The position numbers and the translations under genes were made by a program. Below, piece by piece: positions 4,902-57,991 of a stretch of 64,000 nt of DNA. The stretch is from Octopus vulgaris. Taxonomy: Eukaryota. Within the stretch, counting starts at the first letter, position 1. Each line of letters begins with the position of its first letter. A model generated the notes under the pieces. The model searched no databases. It worked only from the letters and a program-made list of their open reading frames with translations, and had not been told where the DNA came from. The DNA lies in assembly GCA_951406725.2 (NCBI GenBank), contig OX597815.1:133734001-133798000 (forward strand). Direction: 5' to 3'.

Positions 4902-6190
4902 GGCTTTCTTATAGGATAGGGTGGGAAATTATCTCGTGAGAAAAAAAGAAAAAAAAACACCAACTAATTTCTTTAGATCCGCATGTTTTAAACATCGAAA
5001 ACTATAAATCTGCCCGAGAGAAAATGACCTCCAGTACATATCGGAAGAGACGGCACAGAAGCGACATGCTACGTTAATCTAATTTACAAATAAATTATTG
5101 TTTTTACATTAGTGACTATTAAGATTAATTATACGGAGTTAATATTTTCATAGACATGAGGGCGGCCGAGCTGGCAGAATCGTTAGCACGCCGAGCAAAA
5201 AATGCTTAGCGGTATTTCGTCTGTCTCTGAGTTCAAATTCTGCCAAGGTCGACTTTGCCTTTCATCCTTTCGGGGTCGATATAATCGACTTAATCCGTTT
5301 GTCTGTCCTTGTGTTTGTTCTCTCTATGTTTAGCCCCTTGTGGGTAGTAAAGAAATAGGTATTTCGTCTGCCGCTACGTTTTGAGTTCAAATTCTGCCAA
5401 GGTCGACTTTGCCTTTCATCCTTTCGGGGTCGATTAAATAAGTACCAGTTACGCACTGGGGTCGATATAATCGACTTAAACCGTTTGTCTGTCCTTGTTT
5501 GTCCTTTCTGGGTAGTAAAGAAATAGGTATTTCATCCGTCTTTACGTGTTGAGCTCAAATTTTGCCGAGGTCGACTCTGACTTTCATCCATTTCGACGTT
5601 TATAAAATAAGTACCAGGTGAACACTGAGGTCGTTGTAAACGACTAGTCCCCTCCCTAGAAATTACCGTTTTAGTGCCAAAATTTGAAACCAATATTTCA
5701 CAGCACACCTCAGAAATTTTGTAGACATTGGGGAATTGCACCACATGTGTGGTGTAAATAATACTTTATGAGCTAGAGATTACCAAGACAGAAAAGATCC
5801 CCAAGATTAATTAAATTGACTTATTTACCTTTTATAGTATATTTTATATTTAATTTTTAACTCCCCCACCAAAAAGTTTATTATTTCATTTTTTTTTATG
5901 ACGGGGATCCCCCATTTTCCATGATTATTTTTACTTTTGACTCTTTAATTTTTTTCAATTAATGTTTTAAACATCTGAGATTGTTTTTTTTTTTTAACTA
6001 TGTTTCGCATAAACCCGAAAAAAATTCGGAAAAAGGCAAAACTTGAAATTTGCAGAAAAGTAAAAGTTTCCCGCCGCCTTTTTTTTTTTAAACATATTCA
6101 TAATCTACGATGCTGAAAACATGCAGATCCTAAGAAATTACGGTTTTTTGGCGGCCTAGATAATTTCCGATTCTATTATATGAGAACGCC
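4902..6190. mobile_element. Non-autonomous DNA transposon with long imperfect TIRs (Merlin-like), hosting a SINE stack
   Basis: GGC...GCC termini; 4966-5010 is an inverted match to 6097-6140 and 4902-4936 to 6157-6190; 8-bp flanks AATTAACC (4894-4901) and AGTTAACC (6191-6198). Confidence 0.6.
5161..5695 (+). mobile_element. Stack of three family A SINE bodies (tail B, tail B, tail A) under one head
   Basis: Junctions TAAAGAAATAG|GTATTTCGTCTG at 5358/5359 and TAAAGAAATAG|GTATTTCATCCG at 5526/5527. Confidence 0.9.
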
Positions 6191-6537
6191 AGTTAACCTG
6201 ATACATATTTGTGAAGCTTCTAAGCAGGGTATGGAAGGAAAATCTTTTATCACGGCCAACTATCGCAGCTCACCGACAGTGAATCTTGCCTTCAGATATT
6301 TCTCTAAACTTTGAAAAAGTTATCTTACCTTTTTCATCATCATTTTTTAAAATATTTTAATCGGGAGGAAAGGGCAGTGTCCATGATCCTTCACAGGGCC
6401 TCCGAGATTGGTAGAAGCGAGAGGGGAAAGTATCCTCAAACAGGAAACCTGGCTCAAATGGACCCCACTAAAAGCATCAGGTGCCAGGTGGTGATGTTAA
6501 ACAGAGTGATGAGTTAAATCTACTATTTATGTAGGCT

Positions 6538-6925
6538 GTGGAGGCGCAATGGCCCAGTGGTTAGGGCAGCGGACTCGCGGTCATAGGATCACGGTTTCGA
6601 TTCCCAGACCGGGCGTTGTGAGTGTTTATTGAGCGAAAACACCTTAAGCTCTACGAGGCTCCGGCAGGGGATGGTGGTGATCTCTGCTGTACTCTTTCAC
6701 CACAACTTTCTCTCACTCTTACTTCCTGTTTCTGTTGTACCTGTATTTCAAAGGGCCGGCTTTGTCACTCTCTGTGTCACGCTGAATATCCCCGAGAACT
6801 ACGTTAAGGGTACACGTGTCTGTGGAGTGCTCAGCCACTTACACGTTAATTTCACGAGCAGGCTGTTCCGTTGATTCGGATCAACCGGAACCCTCGTCGT
6901 CGTAACCGACGGAGTGCTTCCATCC
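6538..6925 (+). mobile_element. Young tRNA-derived SINE (family D), full length
   Basis: A box TGGCCCAGTGG (~6550), B box GGTTTCGATTCCC (~6593), CpG-rich body, CCATCCA tail, perfect 13-bp TSD ATTTATGTAGGCT (6525-6537 / 6926-6938). Confidence 0.9.
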
Positions 6926-8469
6926 ATTTATGTAGGCTATAGCGGGATTTGAACTCAGAACTCAAAAGAGTCGGAACAAAATATACCGCCTAGGATTAGT
7001 ACAATTTGTTTTATCGAACCCAAAGGGATGAAAGGCAAAGTTGATCTAAACGGCATTTGAACTCAAGAATAACCATCAAAAAGCATTCTGTCCGTTCCTC
7101 TAACGAGTCGGCCAACTTGCCTCCATGATAGTTGGCAAGTAAAAGTTCGTTAGTAATGCTAATAGCTTGGAAATTTATCTGAATTGCTGAATATAACGAA
7201 TGGGTTAGAAAGAAACTTGCAACGTTGAAGCTCAGATACCAAAGTTTTGTCTACATCATCGGCCATTTGCATTTTAGAACAGTTTAAAGGTCTTTCTTTA
7301 TAATAATTTTAACCACTTCTTTAATTATTAGTATTATAATCTCACTAGTGGCATACGCCTAGCCTTTCTTTGTTATATTAAGGGTGATAAAAAGTGGTAT
7401 CTTAAATCAATTTATTAGCTCAACTGACTTTAAAATGTTTTTAAATTTAGACGATTACTAAGTTTTTCAATGCACTAAAAATATTTAAAAAATGAAAATT
7501 AAGGTTCTTATTTCGTTTATCGGAGTGGAACCTTTTGGTGATTTTTCGTTTTCAGGTTTCCTGGCATTATTAATGAAAGTACACAGGGATTGTATTAAAA
7601 CAAATCCAAAATCTGCAGTTCTTATTTTAAAATTTTGGTCAGTTTCCTCAATTAACTCACAGTTATCAACTCAGAGGCACCAGATAAGAGTGTTGAGATT
7701 TCACTGGTTACCACGAAACTTTTTGGCTTGAACAAGGCGACATAAAGTAGAAAATTACGCGGTTGGGACACTCAGCATCGTATTTTCACAACCTAAATTT
7801 TCGCTATGTATTTGCAAATTAAGCTAAAGCAAAGCCAAGCTATTGTAAAATCTTACAAAACAGCATCACTAGATTGTCCACCGAATTATTGAAAAAGAAA
7901 AAAAAAAAAAAAAGAGCGTGTAGCAAGTGAGAGAGGGCGCTTGTTTTTTGTTTGCTAACATATTTATTTCTACGTTAATGTAGACGTTCATGCAATATTT
8001 AAAAAAACAAAAAGGATTATCCAGGCGAGACAACGTATATGTCAAGTGCAGAAACTAATCGTTAGAAATTGAACACTCGGGCTAGTTTTTACACATTAAT
8101 ATATATTCTTGTTGCCGTGGAGTGTTTTCTTCAATCGTTCCAGGTTGCATATGTAGTTGCAAAAGCCGTCATATGTGGAGAGTGAACTACTACTACTACT
8201 CGTATTTGTAGTATTTTAACCCGAGTTCAGCACTGACAAAGTAGATATATGCTAACTTTCTTCTAGCAATGACCATGACCTGTCATAGTTTTTATAATGT
8301 GCCTACTTTACAAAATGTATTAGTTTGACGCTCAAGAGAAATGGAAGTTTTTAATGTTTCGAGCCTACGCTCCTCTAAAGAACGGAATGAGGAGAGAAAA
8401 CAGATGGAGAGAGGGGAAAAAAAATCGTTATCTGTGTTAACAGTTGCACATGTTGATCATGGTAAGCTC

Positions 8470-10905: not shown

Positions 10906-11941
10906 GTATAGTCTCCCTTTTGTGGAAATAAGATGGAATAGCCACGGTTAGCTTGATCAGAGACGATCTGGTACTAAACAATAAGAACAACAATTCCTAA
11001 TAACACATAATGATCTCTTTATTAATAGAGATTTCTTACATGAGCATTAGGCTACAAAACTGAGGGAAAGAGTTAAGTTAAATCGATTCCAATATATTAT
11101 CGATAAGGCTGTTGTTTAGCTACAGAGCATTCTTTGAATGAGAGGACTTATGATTCCACTTCGTTTATATTTAGGTTACATTATGCAATGTGTCTTCCTT
11201 TTTCTTCAGGGTAAATTTTGAGAGGGGTTTGGTTGCTAATTCTTGCAGGTCGAACGAAGTTTTCTTATTAGTTCGATAAATAATAGATTTCTAGCACGGG
11301 CTCAAGGCCATAAATTTTTTGGAGAGGGTACACGATTAACTCAATTACTGGTATTTGTTTTATCGAACATTTGAGGAATGAAAGGCAAAGTCAAGCCCAA
11401 GGGTATTAGAACTTATGATGTAAAAGAATGCAATTAATTACTGTAGAACATTTTCGCTCGTTCTTGATGTTACTCATTACCCTATTCCAAAAATATTTAT
11501 TGGTGTTCATTTTAACGACTCCAGACGGATGGAAGCAATATTTGACTCCATCGGGACGGAACACTGCAAAGAATTTAGTTCAATGTTTCATCATTATTGC
11601 AATTTCATATTCATGAAGGCGCAAAACCATGCCACAAATGTTGAAAGAGTGGGTTTGTTGTAGCTGATTTGATCGATCCCACTCTTAACCAGTACTTATT
11701 TCAGAAACCCCAGAAAGATGAGACAAACACGATTCCAGTGGGATTCGAACATGCAATGGAACGTAAAGAAATGTAACTAAATACCTGAAGTCAGTTTGTC
11801 AGCCGCGCGACTGATTCCGTTGTCTACCGAACTTCTTTGTTTAGAGTGATGTCTAACTTGGGTATAAGGCCACATTTTGTGAGAAAATACAGTCAATTAA
11901 ATCGAAGCCGGCATTTTATCAATATTATATCTTATCGACTA

Positions 11942-12180
11942 GGGCGGCGAGCTGGCAGAAACGTTAGCACGCCGGGCGAAATGCTTGGCAGTATTTCGTC
12001 TGCCGCTACGTTCTGAGTTCAAATTCCACCGAGGTCGACTTTGCCTTTCATCGTTTCGGGGTTGATTAAATAAATATCAGTTACGCACTGGAGTCGATAT
12101 AATCGACTTAGTCCGTTTGTCTGTCCTTGTTTGTCCCCTCTGTGTGTAGCCCCTTGTGGACAGTAAAGAAATAGAAATAG
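11942..12180 (+). mobile_element. SINE family A head with tail-B body, immediately upstream of the LINE
   Basis: Ends TAAAGAAATAGAAATAG, followed by the target GTATTTCGTCTGTCT (12181-12195). Confidence 0.9.
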
Positions 12181-12360
12181 GTATTTCGTCTGTCTGTTAT
12201 TGAAAATTTATTGTTGGAGTGTGTTCTTAAGTTTCTGTTAATTGTTATATCCCTTGTTGTGCCTATTGTTGGATTTATTGTTTAAAAATTGTATTATAGT
12301 TTTCTTTCGAAAGCCATCAGTGGTTTTCCCCTGTGGGGGAAAACATTAATTGCCGGCAAG

Positions 12361-13672
12361 ATGCCGAAAAGTGTGTCTTCGTCGAGTGAAGATTCATCGG
12401 CCGAGCGGGAAGCAAGGAAGATAGAAAGTTTAATTTGTGATAACATTTCTGATGTTTCGGAAAGTGAATTCCCTGCATTGCCAAAAGTTACGGATACCAA
12501 AAGAAATATAGAAGCAAAGACCATTCAAAATGAAGAAAGAAAAAGTTTTGCGTCAGCAGCTGGTAGTGGAACGCGACAGCTGTTAACTGACAAAAAATAA
12601 TTATTAAAATACAAGGAAATGATAACAGAACGAGATGGAGTGGTAAAAGTGGAATACCAGAAGAATTAACGAAGGAAAAAAGGAAAATTATTATTTTTAA
12701 GACATTCTGCTTAAAAGCTCGAAGAATTCACAAGATATGTGAGCAAAAAATTGAAAAATGTTTAAAACCCATCTGGCAGGACATTACATATCTAGCCAGA
12801 GGGAAGAAGTTTGGAACCATCGTGTTAAGAACGCAGAAACGGCACAACAACACCCTGTAAAATCATTAGAGTCGGAAGACACAATATTAATCCTAATTTA
12901 CATGGGAATGAGAATATCAAAGGTTAGAATACCAAGAATTCCACCCGGAGTAAACCCTATGTGCTTGATGGCGGCAGTCCTGGCAAACAGGGAGGATAAT
13001 ATTAACCTCCTGCAGGCTACCGTCACAGAGAATACATATTGGACTGGACAAACGCTCAACCTGATACTGCTGGCTGACCAAAAAATTTTTAGAACAGCTC
13101 CCAAAAATAGTAGAAGTAGGGAAGGAAGTTCTAAATATTTTTGTTGAGGGATGTAAGCTCCGATGTTTCTAGTGTGGCCAACTGGGTAACATTAAAAGTA
13201 TTGTAAAGAAGGGGAAGAAGAATTGGACGGTGAGGAGGTAGAAAAAGAGAGAGAGAAACAAGGAAAAATAAGCAACAAAAGGAAAAAGGAAGGCTCGAAC
13301 CAGCAAAAGCAGAGCGAGCCAGCCGAGACAAAAAAATAAATAAATAAACAGCCAAGAGAGACAGACCGAGGATGGCGGAGGGGGAGACGAACAAAGAAAT
13401 AGTTGCACTACACACCAAAAACGAGGATTTAATGCGTGATATAAAAACAAAAAAATCAGCCACTAGGCTAATTGAACTATCAGACAAATATAAAAACTAT
13501 GAATTTTAAGAATTGGACAAAAAATACATATAACATCTTGTTTAATACGTATAGAAAATCGGTCTCAACATTGAGATTTGATTTTCATCAATCTATGTTT
13601 GAAGGCTTGCCACCTCCGACCCCAAGTCAAGAAAAGGTGGAGAGTCCCTCTCCACAGGACGCTCCGATCTGA
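12361..13672 (+). pseudogene. LINE ORF1 (disrupted; CCHC-type zinc knuckle)
   Basis: Co-linear ORF pieces 12289-12600, 12758-13147 and 13472-13672; VEGCKLRCF*CGQLGNIK at ~13144-13200, followed by a Lys/Glu-rich segment. Confidence 0.7.
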
Positions 13673-13689
13673 AAGGTAAATCACGTCTA

Positions 13690-16600
13690 TTCACATTGGT
13701 TGTATAAATGTCCGTAGCTTGATGTCGAGTTGGAAGCAAGGACGCTTCCTAAATGACATCAGGTCAAGAAATTTGGATGTAATTGTTGTAATGGAAACCC
13801 CGGTGAAGGGGCCAAGAGATCTGTTCCCCCTCCTGAACGACTACGAGAAATACGTTTCTCCAAGTCGGGCGGGCGGTGGGGGCGGGTGTTGGTCCTACTA
13901 AAAAGAAACCGGGTAATCGAGAAAAGGTTGGTTTTTTTCCTGATCTAGAAGACAGGCTGGTCGTTCTCGACCTGACTGTCAGTTGTGACAAGACAATCAG
14001 GCTGGTTGCAATTTATGCACCCAACGTTATGGGTCCGAAAAGTGAATATTTTCGTGACCTGGGCAAGTTCCTAGCCACGTCGCATTCGCTAGTATTGATG
14101 GGAGACTTTAACACAATTTGTGACGCGCGCACAGATTGTGTTGGCTCGAACATGAATAGAAAATGTAATCTTGGCTTTCGGGATCTGTTAAGTCACTTTC
14201 AACTGGCAGATCCATATAAGTTGGAACATCCGAACACTCCACAGTGGACGTGGCCAAATAGTGGCGAGTCTTCCAGAACATATAGATAGGGTTTTAATTA
14301 GAAAACAGATAAGTGCATAGCTAAGTGTCCACAGTTTCATCTAGTCAGCTACAGTGATCACATGATGATTACCTGTAAGCTGACAGTAGATAAGTTACAT
14401 AGACAGGGATCTGGCTACTGGAAACTCAATACGTCCCTTTTGGCGATTGAGGAGTACAGAAAGCAGATCAAGAAGTTAATTCAGAGGGCATTGACAGGTA
14501 CCATCATTAATAATAAATGGAGGTATGCCCTAAAAAGAGCCATAAAATGTGAGTCTATTAGGTTTAGCATAAGTTTAGCTAAGAAGGGACGTAGAATAAG
14601 AGATGGTATAGTTAAGGAACTAGAAGAAGTCTTGAGGTCTGGTAATGCGGACCAAGTGAAGGTAAAGAGACAGGAGTTGAACCAGTATCTTGAAACCCAA
14701 CACATGGGAAGTATTATCAGAGCTAAGTTACGTGCGATGGGAAGTGAAGGAATCAAGGCCGCTGGATGGGCCCGAGTGACGGAAGCTCGACAAGGAAATA
14801 GTTCCACTATTCGGTCTATGACGAACCAAAACGGTGTCTTGGTAAACGAACCCGAGGTAATGTGTGAGGCATTACGGAAGTACTTCGCCCAGCTGTTCGG
14901 GGGTTATGGCGGTCCTGATGGTAGGGAAATCCTCGAGGACTGTCTTATCGGGCTACCACGCCTCTCGGGGTCGGATGCGGAGGCTTGCGAGGGGCCTATC
15001 ACGTCTGGGGAGGTGACGGAGGCTATGGCTGACTATAAAGCGGGTAAGTCGCCGGGACTTGATGGTCTTCCTTACGAACTATATAAATGTATGCCAGACT
15101 TGTTCTGGCATCTACTGGCTAGCCTGGTGCGAACTGGCAACAGAATGGGTTTATTCCCAGATCTGTGCGCCGGGGAGTGGTGACGTTGATCAGAAAGGAC
15201 CCGGACCTGGCCCATCAGAATAATTTCCATCTTATTCGCTATACCATAGAGAGGGTTGGTGATAACTCTGGCAAAGGTGGGGCATTGGTGCATTTAGACC
15301 AATCTAAAGCTTTTGATAGGGTCGACCATTGATACCTGGCGACTGTGCTTGCGCGGTTTGGCCTGGACCTTGGCTTCATCAGGTGGTTCATCGCTCTGTA
15401 TCACAACAGTGACTCGATAGTTCGGGTGAACGGTTTCCTTTCGAAACCGTTCTGCATCAGACGCTCGGTTCAGCAAGGACGTCCGCTCTCGCCACTTTTG
15501 TATGTGGTGGCTCTTGAGCCCCTACTGCAAAAGTTGAGTGACATCCTGAGAGAACCAGATTTAGAGGAGTTTGTTTCAGCTTACGCGAACGATATCACTA
15601 TCAGCGTTACCACAGTAGCACGCCAATGTGAAGTGGGTAAGGCTATTGAGGTTTACGAGACGGTGGCAGGAGCAAAGGTCAACCGGGAAAAGTTGGTCGG
15701 CTTGCAGCTCGGCGCTGGGTTGACAAGTCGATGCCTTCAGACAGCGTTGTTGGGCGCTGGACGGAGGGACCGGTTAAATTGCCGGGAGTCTGGTTTGGAC
15801 CAGGCCTCCAGATACAGAAGAACTGGACGGAGGTTTCGAGCAGGGTGGCTGCAATAGTCAAGACCTGGTCTTGGCGGTGGCTATCCCTGAAAGGGAGGGC
15901 GGAGGTGTCCAATGTGTTTATCGCATCGGTCATTACTTACCGTCAGACCCCTCGTGTCCTGTCCGGATTCGTGGATGATCAGGTTGGAGAGGCAGCTCTT
16001 TCACTTTTTGTGGAAGAACAAGTCGCTACTTGTGAAACGCTCTATCTGTTGTCAGAAGCCGTTAAAGGGAGGTTTAGGGATGCCTTGGTTAATGATGCGC
16101 AGGCATGCGTTGAGGTTGAGGCATCTCTGTATTCTCCTGGATGGTGAACGGGTGTGGTCTCCGCTAGCCAGACAAATGTTCCCCGAGTTCAAAAGTTTTT
16201 GCGAACAGGAAGCCTGGTGTTCTCGTAGACCGAGGTCGAGTAAGTGGCATATGGAGTGTCGTAAGGCCTTCCTGCTATTCCGGCGCTCGGGCAACGCCAG
16301 CGGTGGGGGTTCTACACCTTTTTAATATAGTGGGTTGGTAGAGTCTGAATGTGACGATGGTCTGGGGGCGACTCTAAGTCTCGGGTATATTCAGCTCGAC
16401 AGCCTGTTCCACCATACATTCGGGTTGAGAACGTTGGACAATTTCCAAAAGTCCTTGACCTGGCAATGTTACAGGGGCGCCTTGACCGTTTGGGACAAAC
16501 TCGCAAGACATGTCCAAGATGCGTGGTGGGTGGGCTAGGGAAACCGTCTCTCACGCTATTGTCCGGTGCCCGGAAATATTTGAAATGTGGGTTTATGCTG

Positions 16601-16911
16601 AACACCTGTTGTCTGGCGAAGAAAGAGTACAGCTGTCGACTGGGTCAATTATAAAAATTGACCCACCGGAATTTTTAACAAATGAAGGTAAGAATTGTTT
16701 TCTCACGGTTGTTGCAATAGCGAAAGAGGCAGTCTGGAAGACTAAGATAAAAGGGATTAAGACGGGTAACTTTATCTCCGGCCACGAGTTAAGATCGTTT
16801 TTCACTTTTCACATGAGAACTTGGCTGGAGAAGAGATGGCTGTTGGAGAGTGTGTTCAAAAAAAGATGGAAGCATGTTGCACGAGTGCTGTGCGTGCAAG
16901 GAACTATGTGA
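13690..16911 (+). pseudogene. LINE ORF2 (APE endonuclease + reverse transcriptase), frameshifted
   Basis: Endonuclease: CINVRSL, IYAPN, MGDFN, WTW, YSDH, GYWKLN. RT: KSPGLDGLPYELY, LDQSKAFDRVDH, SVQQGRPLSPLLY, AYANDI (YADD mutated). C-terminal CPRC...ETVSHAIVRCP. The RPITLLN segment appears deleted near 15215. Confidence 0.92.
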
Positions 16912-17154
16912 ATAAGACGGGAAAAAAAGAACAAAAATAAGGGTACCAGCGATAGATCGGGGCTTGTGGGGTCGGAGCGTGGCCTAATCATCGCTTCATT
17001 TGTATTGTCTCTGTATTGTTAATTTCATTCGATTTTTTAATATTTTATTAAAATTTTTAAAGTCATATTATATGTAAATCATATTGCATTACTGATCCCA
17101 TCAGTTGTTCTGTCCATTTCTATGTTTGGCCCCCGGTGGGCAATAAAGAAATTG

Positions 17155-17291
17155 CTATTTCGTCTGTTTTTACGTTCTGAGGTTGATTTTTGCCTGTCAT
17201 CCTTTCGGGGTCGATAAATTAAGTACTAAGGTCGATCTAATTGACTGGCCCCCTTCCCAAAATTTCGGGCCTTGTGCCTAGAGTAGAAAAG
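17155..17291 (+). mobile_element. 3' remainder of the host family A SINE (tail A)
   Basis: Resumes TATTTCGTCTG...TACGTTCTGAG...CCTTGTGCCTAGAGTAGAAAAG; outer TSD ATTATATCTTATCGACT (11924-11940) / ATTATATCTTATCAACT (17292-17308). Confidence 0.88.
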
Positions 17292-17389
17292 ATTATATCT
17301 TATCAACTCCCAGAAGGATAAAAGTAAAAGTCAATCTGGGCAGAATTTTAACTCAATACCCTCAGGTTACTAGAAAATTAAATACTTGT

Positions 17390-31659: not shown

Positions 31660-32743
31660 CTCCTTCCTTAAATCTAACGTGCCTTCGACTATAGCAAACA
31701 TACGTACATAAAGAGGCCGTCCTATCTGGTTAGCTCACTCCACGCTGCACCACTGGGTAGTTTCACTATTTTCTTTTTCGACACTCAAGTATTTGTCCGC
31801 AATGGAGGCTGTGAGTGCTAACGTTCATCTTTTGTCGGGTTTTGATCTGCTCTCACTTGAATTTGAACTCGCGACTTAGAAGTCTTGAATCCACTCTCAG
31901 GGATATATCGGTTGCACTCTTCTGTCATTAATCCGTCGCTCGGTTTAACATTATCGCATGAGATTTAGGTGTTTTATGCGGAGTGTCTCACTGTCGTAAG
32001 CATTCAAGCAAGATCTCCAATCTGCAGATAACTTCCTCTTTTTCGTCACTCGCGGAGAGGCATGCTGCCTTTCTCCCCTCTGAGATGTAAATTAAAAACT
32101 GCTATATTATCCTGGAACTTCGCTTATAGTTAGATATAGACTTAATGCAAAGGGCGGTCAGTTAAAGCTAAGATACAGCGCTGAATAAATAAATAAATGA
32201 ATACTTGCGTCTAGAAAGTTTTGTGTTTACTACAATATTTCATGTTAAATCAATTTAGTTTTCACTCTCAACGGGGAGTCGATAAAATAACTACCAAAAT
32301 TAGTAGGCTATCAAATAAAGGAAATATGCCCTTTAATCTCCAGTTCGTGTTGTATCCAGTAGAGCCTTCCACAAAAATGTAATTTGAATGTCATGGCTAA
32401 TATGTGGCTTCCGGGTAACTTTGGAAAAGTGAAGCCGTTGTTTACTCGAAATAGTTACGGTCTTAAAGGACACCGGATGTTTCCTCTAAACGGTAGTCCA
32501 ATTTAAAGGATTACAAAATAAAAGTATTAAAATATAAAAAAATGAACATCCGGAACAAAAGCAAGAAAAATATTTCATGCTCGATCAGATTTGACTGTAT
32601 TTGAACAAAAAAATAAGCTTTTCATTATAGTGGTATAAATGCCATTTATTGTTGCAATTTCACTGTGAGAGTGAATGAGAGAAAGAGATACAGAGATGGG
32701 TGGGGTAAATTGTCGAACATGTACGTTAACAACGATTCTTTCT

Positions 32744-33097
32744 TTTCTACTCTAGGCACAAGGCCCGAAATTTGGGGTGGGCGGGGGCCACTCAATTTGA
32801 TCGACCCCAGTACGTAACTGGTATTTAATTTATTTGAACTCAGAACGTAACGGCAGACGAAATATCTATTTCTTTACTACCCACAAAGGGCTAAACACAG
32901 AGGGGACAAACAAGGACAGACATAGGTATTAAGTCGATTATATCGACCCCAGTGCGTAAGTGGTACTTATTTAATCGACCCCGAAAGGATGACAGGCAAA
33001 GTCGACCTCGGCAGAATTTGAACTCAGAACGTAACAGCAGACGAAATACGGCTACGCATTTCGCCTGGCGTGCTAACGTTTCTGCCAGCTCGCTGCC
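32744..33097 (-). mobile_element. Family A SINE stack: tail-B body inserted in a tail-A copy
   Basis: Minus-strand junction TAAAGAAATAG|ATATTTCGTCTGCCG at 32866/32865; outer TSD TTAACAACGATTCTTTCT (32726-32743) / TTAACAATGATCCTTTCT (33098-33115). Confidence 0.9.
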
Positions 33098-56369: not shown

Positions 56370-57991
56370 TACATTCGGAGTTAAAATCTCACCAGAATTG
56401 ATAAAATAAAGTACCAGTTAAGTACTGGGATTACATTAATCAACTGTGCCTTCCATCATATTTGTGGCCTTATGCTTTAACGAGAAATTATTATTATTAA
56501 CATTATAAGGCGGCCAGCAGGCAGAATCGCTTGCACATTGGGCAAAATGCTTAGTGGCATTTTGCCTGTCTTTACATTCAGAGTTCAAATTCCGCTGAGG
56601 TCGACTTTGCCTTTCATCCTTTCGGGGTCAATAAATTAAGTACCTATTTCTTTACTACCCACAAGGGGCTAAACACAGAGCGGACAAACAAGGACAGGCA
56701 AACGGATTAAGTCGATAACATCGACCCCAGTGCGTAACTGGTACTTAATTTATCGACCCCGAAAGGATGAAAGGCAAAGTCGACCTTGGTGGAATTTGAA
56801 CTCAGAACGTAACGGCAGACAAAATACGGCTACGCATTTCGCCCGGTGTGCTAACGTTTCTGCCAGCTCACCACCTTTATAAATTAAGTACCAGTGGAAC
56901 ACTGGGGTTGATATAATCAACTTGTCCCCTTTCCCCAAATTTCAGGCCTTGTGCCTATTGTAGAAACGATTATGATTATTATTATGGCTGCAAGCTAGCA
57001 GAATTGTTAGCGTGACAGGAAAAATGCTTAGTTGCATTCCATCCATCTTTATGTTCTGAGTTCAAATTCTACTGAGGTTGACTTTACCATTCATCCTTTT
57101 GGGGTTGATGAAATAAGTACCAGTAACACATTGGGTCAATGTAATCGACTTGCCCTTCTCCCCTAATTTCAAGCATTGTGCCTTTAATAGAAAGGATTAT
57201 TATTTGCAGAATTGTTAGCATGCTGGGCAAAATTCTTAGCAGCATTTCGTCTGTCTTTGCGTTCTGATTTCAAAGTCTGCTAAGGTTGAGTTTACTTTTC
57301 ATCCTTTTTGGATCAAAAAAATAAGCACCAGTTGAACATTGAGGTCAATGTAATCGACTTGTCACCTCCCCCAGAATTTCTGGTCTTGTGCCAAAATTTG
57401 AAATCATCATCATCATTATTATTATTATTGTGGGAAGTTGGCCGAATTGTTAGCATACCAGACAAAATGCTTAACTGCATTCCGTCTGTCTTTATGTTCT
57501 GGGTTCAAATTCTGCAAAGGTCAACTTTGCTTCAGTCAGGTACTTAGTTCAAAATAATTGATTAGCCCCCTCCCCCAAAATTTTAATATTTTTGCCTATA
57601 ATACAAAGAATTATTAGGTTGGTGGAATTGTTAGAATGTTGGACAAAAATGCTTTGTGGTTCCAGCTCTTTATGTTGTGAGTTCAAATCATGCCTAAATC
57701 AACTTTGCTTTTCATCCACTGGAGGTATGAAAATAAAGTGCCATTCAAGTGTAGGGGTTGATATTATTGACAGTTCAAAGGTGGAAAGCTGGTAGAATTA
57801 TTAGCATACCAGGCAAAATGCTTGGCAGCATTTCGCCCATTTTTACGTTCTGAGTTGAATTTCTGCCAAGGTCAACCTTACCTTTCATTCTTTTGGGGTT
57901 GATGAAAAAAGTAAGCAGTCAAGCACTGGCGTTGATGTAATCGGCTTACCCTCTGCCCCAAACTTGTTGGCTTTGTACCAAAAGTTGAAAC
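56370..57991 (+). repeat. Head-to-tail array of ~7 family A SINEs separated by (ATT)n-like spacers
   Basis: Units start at about 56370 (partial), 56508, 56986, 57205, 57430, 57617 and 57780; the last has a 20-bp TSD TGATATTATTGACAGTTCAA (57759-57778 / 57992-58011). Confidence 0.88.
56644..56878 (-). mobile_element. Young tail-B SINE inserted antisense into an array unit
   Basis: Perfect 13-bp TSD ATAAATTAAGTAC (56631-56643 / 56879-56891); retains many CpGs. Confidence 0.92.

Follow-up and report, generated by a model that had tools for sequence, protein, structure and literature searches.

A 64,000-nucleotide stretch of the Octopus vulgaris genome (contig OX597815.1, hereafter the window) carries a long interspersed element (LINE) lodged within a short interspersed element (SINE), next to a second SINE whose 3' end resembles that of the LINE. 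When copies of these elements were collected from the 2.8 Gb genome, we found the LINE almost exclusively at a single position (GGTATTTCGTCTG) in the heads of SINEs, which belong to an abundant superfamily, presumably of tRNA type, and are distinguished here by their tails (A1, A2 and B). We consider it likely that the LINE is a site-specific element of the L1/Tx1 group, and that the tail-B SINE, which bears the tail of this LINE lineage, is moved by the same enzyme into its own relatives. This reading is carried by the use of the same position at both ends of the LINE, by the shared tail, by duplications of ~14-16 bp at both LINE and SINE and by independent insertion into different subfamilies.

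Insertion of the LINE at one position in a SINE head

The nested locus lies on the forward strand and is bounded by the target-site duplication of an original tail-A SINE (11924-11940 and 17292-17308), the two copies of which agree at 16 of 17 bases. Its head (11943-11989) contains an A-box-like motif and the 5' arm of a long hairpin, the 3' arm of which is the target motif (fold z = -2.1, and -3.2 for the copy at 33097). This is followed by a tail-B SINE unit (11990-12174) comprising the target motif, a body with a B-box-like motif and a LINE-related tail of ~50 terminal bases, and then by a further copy of the motif, GGTATTTCGTCTGT (12180-12193), the LINE itself (12194-17153), the right copy of the motif, GCTATTTCGTCTGT (17154-17167), and the rest of the interrupted SINE, which ends in tail A1 (17168-17291). 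Since the outer 17-bp duplication brackets the entire nest, a single tail-A1 SINE was opened at the motif and took up both the LINE and the tail-B unit, which is stacked at the same site as the LINE, between the 11943 head and the LINE. The site falls between the A-box-like (11953-11963) and B-box-like (12015-12027) motifs, which were spotted by eye against the general box consensus; ARAGORN and Rfam gave no tRNA match to the SINE. The first-pass annotation had placed the LINE in a family A SINE with an identical duplication: the insertion and the duplication are present, but the coordinates lie one base further left and the 14 bp of SINE motif on either side of the LINE match at 13 positions.

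Genome-wide, the proposal that the SINE serves as the landing pad of the LINE was borne out at both ends. A search with the last 256 bases of the LINE, target excluded, yielded 30 loci from the best 40 of 386 candidates, and 28 of these 3' ends lie at the motif, so their placement is not random. A SINE body comes next in 27 cases and the motif plus another LINE in one, with one doubtful case and one off target; the downstream SINE tails are A1 (11), B (9), A2 (3) or unassigned (7), and the hosting copies represent at least three subfamilies. The 5' untranslated region (UTR) of the LINE, with 40 matches listed, likewise gave 30 loci, all with the motif preceding the LINE: after a SINE head in 18, after tail B in 11 and after a head remnant in one. 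Six of these loci share one flank, leaving 25 independent; in this group (L034, L041, L043, L053, L057 and L060) one insertion and its flank recur six times on two contigs as a duplicated segment. All eight fetched copies of a young related family also lie at the motif. Exact LINE tails run into the motif with an exact 12-base match in 63 of 95 cases genome-wide, which is a lower bound because a single mutation excludes the window's own LINE. In L003 and L015, both truncated LINEs, the element is flanked by 15-16-bp duplications that repeat copy-private variants of the target. The preference of the LINE for the motif is thus near strict.

An assembly artefact is ruled out, as the junctions occur on many contigs and a contig of an independent run (X20) spans the 3' end of the young LINE into the motif. 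A LINE carrying a fixed piece of SINE as its own 3' end is also ruled out by the varied downstream tails and the private duplications. No convincing flanking duplication was found in nine loci inspected for a LINE fragment and SINE remainder moved together as one chimera.

The LINE lineage and its shared tail

The window LINE is a decayed, full-span element with a 5' UTR, two broken open reading frames (ORF1 and ORF2) and a 3' UTR without poly(A), which shows 87% identity to intact young relatives. Pfam recovers remnants of Exo_endo_phos (E 7e-5, 13837-14286) and of the reverse transcriptase domain RVT_1 (E 2e-8, 15333-15854). Protein searches revealed two related families. The younger has 79% protein identity to the window LINE, copies that are 99% alike and an intact ORF2 of 1134 amino acids, in which Pfam detects endonuclease, reverse transcriptase and zf-RVT domains (intact relative L133); a zf-CCHC match was obtained in the ORF1 of L135 (E 7e-5). 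The more distant family (64% protein identity) has a similar tail, other targets and a habit of tandem nesting. The two are sister groups in a tree that includes only unlabelled relatives and one Argonauta protein; among named proteins, the closest to that of the LINE comes from Argonauta hians (63% identity). The best solved match is human L1 ORF2p (E 2e-64, residues 6-868), compared with just 1e-20 for R2.

Features of the L1 group are therefore present, namely an N-terminal apurinic/apyrimidinic (APE) endonuclease, a reverse transcriptase and a C-terminal zinc motif in ORF2, with a separate ORF1. The LINE also inserts at a defined sequence of a multicopy target and leaves a short duplication, which is a Tx1-type trait. 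A CCHC knuckle in ORF1 and the lack of a poly(A) tail are further features of Tx1 elements, and here the ORF1 knuckle is present and the LINE 3' ends adjoin the target directly, without poly(A). No match bearing a Tx1 name was returned by the protein comparisons, which contained no named Tx1 references. Membership of the Tx1 clade is plausible on these sequence features, and the element is Tx1-like in its behaviour.

A very young sister family (L142-L148, ~6500-7000) has many copies of equal score with an ORF2 of 1132 amino acids. Its target, CACATGGAGGAAA, lies in another repeat, presumably Helitron-like, which ends in a GC hairpin followed by CTAG; these LINEs occur in tandem arrays and are nested with further members of the lineage.

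The LINE tail (17105-17153) is recognisable by alignment in tail B and in the sister LINE families. As first proposed, the 3' end of the window LINE aligns with tail B, with 37 of 46 bases identical and a score of 37 against a shuffle maximum of 22, and all 36 SINE-LINE tail pairs score above their own shuffle maximum. The tail is a lineage-wide trait, and six or more LINE tail types carry it. A nested sister LINE has a tail nearer to the common tail-B variant (39-40 of 45) than that of the window family is (37-38 of 46), whereas a minor variant has its best match in the window family (42 of 47). Judged by these alignments, tail B is derived from this LINE lineage, with the donor and the mobilising family pinned no more closely than that. 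The earlier suggestion that the SINE captured its tail from the window LINE thus holds for the lineage; given the closer sister tail, capture from the window LINE specifically is unsupported. Single-sequence folds of the tail were no better than those of shuffled sequences (z -1.2 to +1.0).

Other tails of this kind were also encountered. At L061:7365, L096:8612 and L107:6483 a repeat with a related tail is followed by an ATCT microsatellite in all three copies seen, a hint that this tail lineage includes a member that targets microsatellites. Tail-B variants ending in GGGCA[AG]TAAAGAAAT (L061, L094, L101, L107 and L110) are often followed by TATA-type DNA or by a second site in the SINE head, not by the main motif, which suggests several mobilisers.

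Landing of the tail-B SINE in its own relatives

The tail-B SINE is a non-coding, interspersed, duplication-flanked element of ~230 bp with 79,264 exact tails in the genome, 26,784 of which run into the motif. This count is inflated by tandem runs, as 32 of the first 100 listed junctions lie within ~200 bp of the previous one; the other 68 are separate clusters. A blind sample of sixty 10-kb stretches at round coordinates (600 kb) contained 37 tail-B ends, of which 14, in 11 arrays, were followed by motif and body, one by the second head site and 22 by other DNA. The motif occupies ~76 of 1.2 million strand positions in this sample, so that 14 of 37 is far beyond chance (log10 P ~ -49); among the tail-B ends followed by GGTAT, 10 of 15 are at the motif, which accounts for at most 76 of 909 GGTAT sites (log10 P ~ -7.5), although junctions inside one array are not fully independent in either test. 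In the window, four of the seven tail-B-like ends adjoin the motif (5358, 5526, 12174-12180 and 32866), at the places first noted, and three do not (62, 9508 and 56644). The first two belong to a forward-strand array of a head, two tail-B units and an older tail-A2 remainder (5161-5695), and the fourth to a reverse-strand tail-B SINE with a variant head followed by the motif and a tail-A1 remainder (32741-33097).

The idea that the SINE is both cargo and its own target therefore stands as a strong preference but not as a rule. About 60% of tail-B copies in the blind sample lie in non-target DNA with GGTA- or TATA-like starts, and thus the preference of the SINE is looser than the near-strict one of the LINE. 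Many of these off-target copies have duplications of ~14-20 bp that start with GGT or TATA, resembling those of the LINE in size and, for GGT, in their start. A second site, at about base 15 of the SINE head, accounts for 3,141 exact tail-B junctions, mostly with the tail variant nearest the window LINE.

This looser aim, together with the second head site, raises the possibility that a sister LINE, with a laxer preference for GGT, mobilises tail B, the shared site reflecting common descent of the endonucleases. The tail that matches best belongs to another nested LINE, and one relative's tail is followed by GGT (L149). The SINE and the window LINE nevertheless share base position and duplication length, and are stacked on each other in 11 of the 30 listed loci; mobilisation by a sister LINE is possible, though we think it doubtful.

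Tail A1 also adjoins the second head site in L046, L050 and L059 (~1440-1460), which may mean that the tail-A SINE, too, targets its own family. Within the window, a tail-B SINE in reverse orientation (56509-56960) interrupts an older SINE body at GGTACTTAATTTAT and has a 14-bp duplication; L015 shows use of this site as well, which suggests a third, antisense hot spot. Nearby (56986-57948) at least five older SINE heads and bodies stand in tandem at ~200-bp spacing.

Tail B followed by the target might instead have been one fixed dimeric SINE. Among 45 junctions in all retrieved DNA, 33 passed alignment filters, and their downstream units are of type B (18), A1 (10), A2 (4) or unassigned (1). 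In 14 of the 15 non-B cases the downstream unit is richer in rare variants than the upstream one, a contrast that is partly a difference between subfamilies. An old head, a private duplication and a new head follow in that order in L103, L051 and L039, and 104 doubled-head junctions with varied spacers occur genome-wide, some of which are short tandem repeats. Since the partners differ and look older, and copy-private duplications accompany doubled-head insertions, a single fixed dimer is ruled out; the dimer at L114, moreover, has no close sibling, its best other match among the best 40 of 4778 candidates being 90%.

A less rigid version would keep the LINE site-specific and have most junctions of tail B and target multiplied as ready-made dimers or arrays, either from a few seeds that read through tail B into a tail-A remainder and were moved by the partner of tail A, or by unequal crossing-over. 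Several observations lean this way and weigh against independent insertion. Doubled heads are rare (104 against 26,784, by patterns of unequal stringency). Three of ten arrays in which tail B is followed by tail A (L114, L118 and window 33097) have no old head and a single head of a type that, among monomers, was seen only in those with tail B (9 of 26, against 0 of 42 with tail A), as read-through dimers would also yield. The upstream motif carries rare variants of the downstream copy in just 1 of 17 cases, so most SINE junctions are without a diagnostic duplication. A whole unit is duplicated in L150, tracts of 40-60 bases are shared in L059 and L105, and one long, regular run has 10 units. 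Longer shared tracts are concentrated in three arrays (18 of 106 variants in columns 16-60, where ~4 are expected). Two further points count against the wider reading, alongside the closer match of common tail B to a sister LINE: the ratio of ~95 exact LINE tails to ~79,000 exact SINE tails is steep, and of 12 LINE fragments with a 5' break inside the retrieved flank, nine have no SINE head at the break, one of these nine being an interrupted full-length copy.

Amplification of ready-made dimers is, on the other hand, hard to reconcile with downstream partners that belong to three or more subfamilies and appear older than the units upstream of them, with the lack of a dimer sibling for L114, with the 68 separate clusters among the first 100 junctions, and with isolated tail-B copies, which also begin their duplications with GGT or TATA. 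As the main source of the junctions it appears quite improbable. We read most arrays as the product of 5' joining led by homology, in which the upstream half of the target is replaced, together with some tandem duplication, and regard read-through dimers as a minority possibility. Two runs, with 10 and 6 body-plus-tail-B units at 184-187-bp spacing (G000:C1:4676262-4677965 and C1:4607428-4608382), have the appearance of incipient SINE-derived satellites.

Proposed mechanism, related systems and implications

In the mechanism that we favour, the ORF2 endonuclease would nick the DNA where the motif begins, and the shared tail would be the starting point of reverse transcription. Head and motif are also part of the SINE RNA, so that homology would usually guide the joining of the new complementary DNA to the upstream half of the target. 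The result would be a single head with body-plus-tail units stacked behind it, and doubled heads would arise from the rare joins made without homology. Each inserted copy would supply a new motif, and the product, keeping its A and B boxes in register with tail B, would stay both a source, through presumed RNA polymerase III (Pol III) activity, and a target. The SINE is aimed less strictly than the LINE, and local tandem duplication extends some arrays.

In the variant heads, the type found in 9 of the 26 tail-B monomers, one pair of the hairpin differs on both sides (G-C in place of U-G). Tail B is followed by the variant motif start in just 296 cases, compared with 26,784 for the common motif, whereas all eight copies of the young LINE, and most of the exact LINE-tail junctions listed, are in variant heads. 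This may represent a shift in specificity, or the young LINE RNA may carry those bases itself, as hinted by L138, an element that is 99% identical to its siblings and yet lies between unlike copies of the motif. We would only tentatively propose a self-feeding three-way system, in which the SINE makes the landing pads of its mobiliser and overwrites older subfamilies by head capture through homology, the variant site being an escape and the young LINE a pursuit.

The L138 difference would also fit an aim set mainly by RNA-DNA pairing, not by the endonuclease, with transcripts that read into the flanking motif annealing at loosely nicked matching sites. Off-target SINE copies match just the first 3-5 bases of the motif, LINE 5' ends bear motif-like bases with family-specific variants, and R2 targeting is stronger with co-transcription of the target, according to work cited in PMC4494074. 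Insertion is, however, base-exact, sister LINEs with near-identical tails hit unrelated targets, and target choice is set mainly by the endonuclease in the established work that PMC4494074 describes. Pairing as the main determinant thus seems unlikely to us, although it could act together with aiming by the endonuclease.

The closest precedent in the literature is the Tx1-Mar LINEs and SINEU-1, -2 and -3 of crocodilians (Kojima 2015, PMC4494074), where a Tx1 lineage and SINEs insert at a common target within a further transposon, much as the L1/Tx1-group LINE and the SINE do in the octopus. According to the same account, 90% of SINEU-3 and 13-23% of SINEU-1 and -2 copies are flanked by the shared target, tandem insertions sandwich a duplication, there are two target hot spots, and hitch-hiking was considered as a rival explanation. 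The crocodilian target is a DNA transposon, Mariner-N4_AMi, whereas that in the octopus is the passenger SINE's own head; the SINEU heads derive from U1 and U2, whereas the octopus SINE has box-like motifs of Pol III type; and no LINE with the SINEU-1 3' end was found in the crocodilian study (PMC4494074), whereas the octopus tail is common to SINE and LINE. Other elements resemble the octopus LINE in having an APE endonuclease and reverse transcriptase, an affinity to the L1 clade, a strict multicopy target and a short duplication, namely Tx1L of Xenopus, which targets Tx1D, Keno, which targets U2, and Kibi and Koshi, which target microsatellites; none of these targets, as named in PMC4494074 and PMC3747384, is a SINE. 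In UnaSINE and UnaL2 the SINE 3' end comes from the partner LINE (PMC3747384), and the octopus pair is similar to pairs of this type in that the SINE and LINE 3' ends are homologous. The rows seen of the SINE/LINE table in PMC3747384 contain L2, CR1, RTE and L1 partners, with no octopus entry and no Tx1 partner.

The octopus SINEs OR1 and OR2 (Ohshima and Okada 1994) are tRNA-derived, as cited in PMC4758252 and PMC4824008, and the passages there on these SINEs refer neither to a partner LINE nor to self-targeting. Our literature search found no SINE-targeting Tx1 element and no self-targeting octopus SINE; it was made without Repbase and Dfam, and a Repbase entry may already note the target. 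The supplements of PMC4494074 list targets of additional Tx1 families, which are possibly relevant to novelty.

Ohshima and Okada are also said to have described octopus SINEs, one of them reportedly named OK, as abundant tRNA-type elements that have head and body in common but differ in their tails. By this description, the SINEs studied here are probably OR1, OR2 or related families.

The spread of site-specific retrotransposons is usually constrained by the fixed number of their targets, for example ribosomal DNA or small nuclear RNA genes. If the target is made by the passenger, the numbers of both would rise together. The tens of thousands of junctions, the intact young LINEs and the sister families with differing targets and near-identical tails make it testable how APE endonucleases switch targets, and how 5' junctions are made where RNA and target are alike in sequence. 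Repeat annotation will misread such arrays as dimer families or satellites. Escape and pursuit, if true, would amount to a contest between SINE and LINE over a target site, recorded in tens of thousands of datable junctions. SINEs make up ~40% of octopus repeats (PMC8967140), and feedback between target and passenger may help to explain this dominance.
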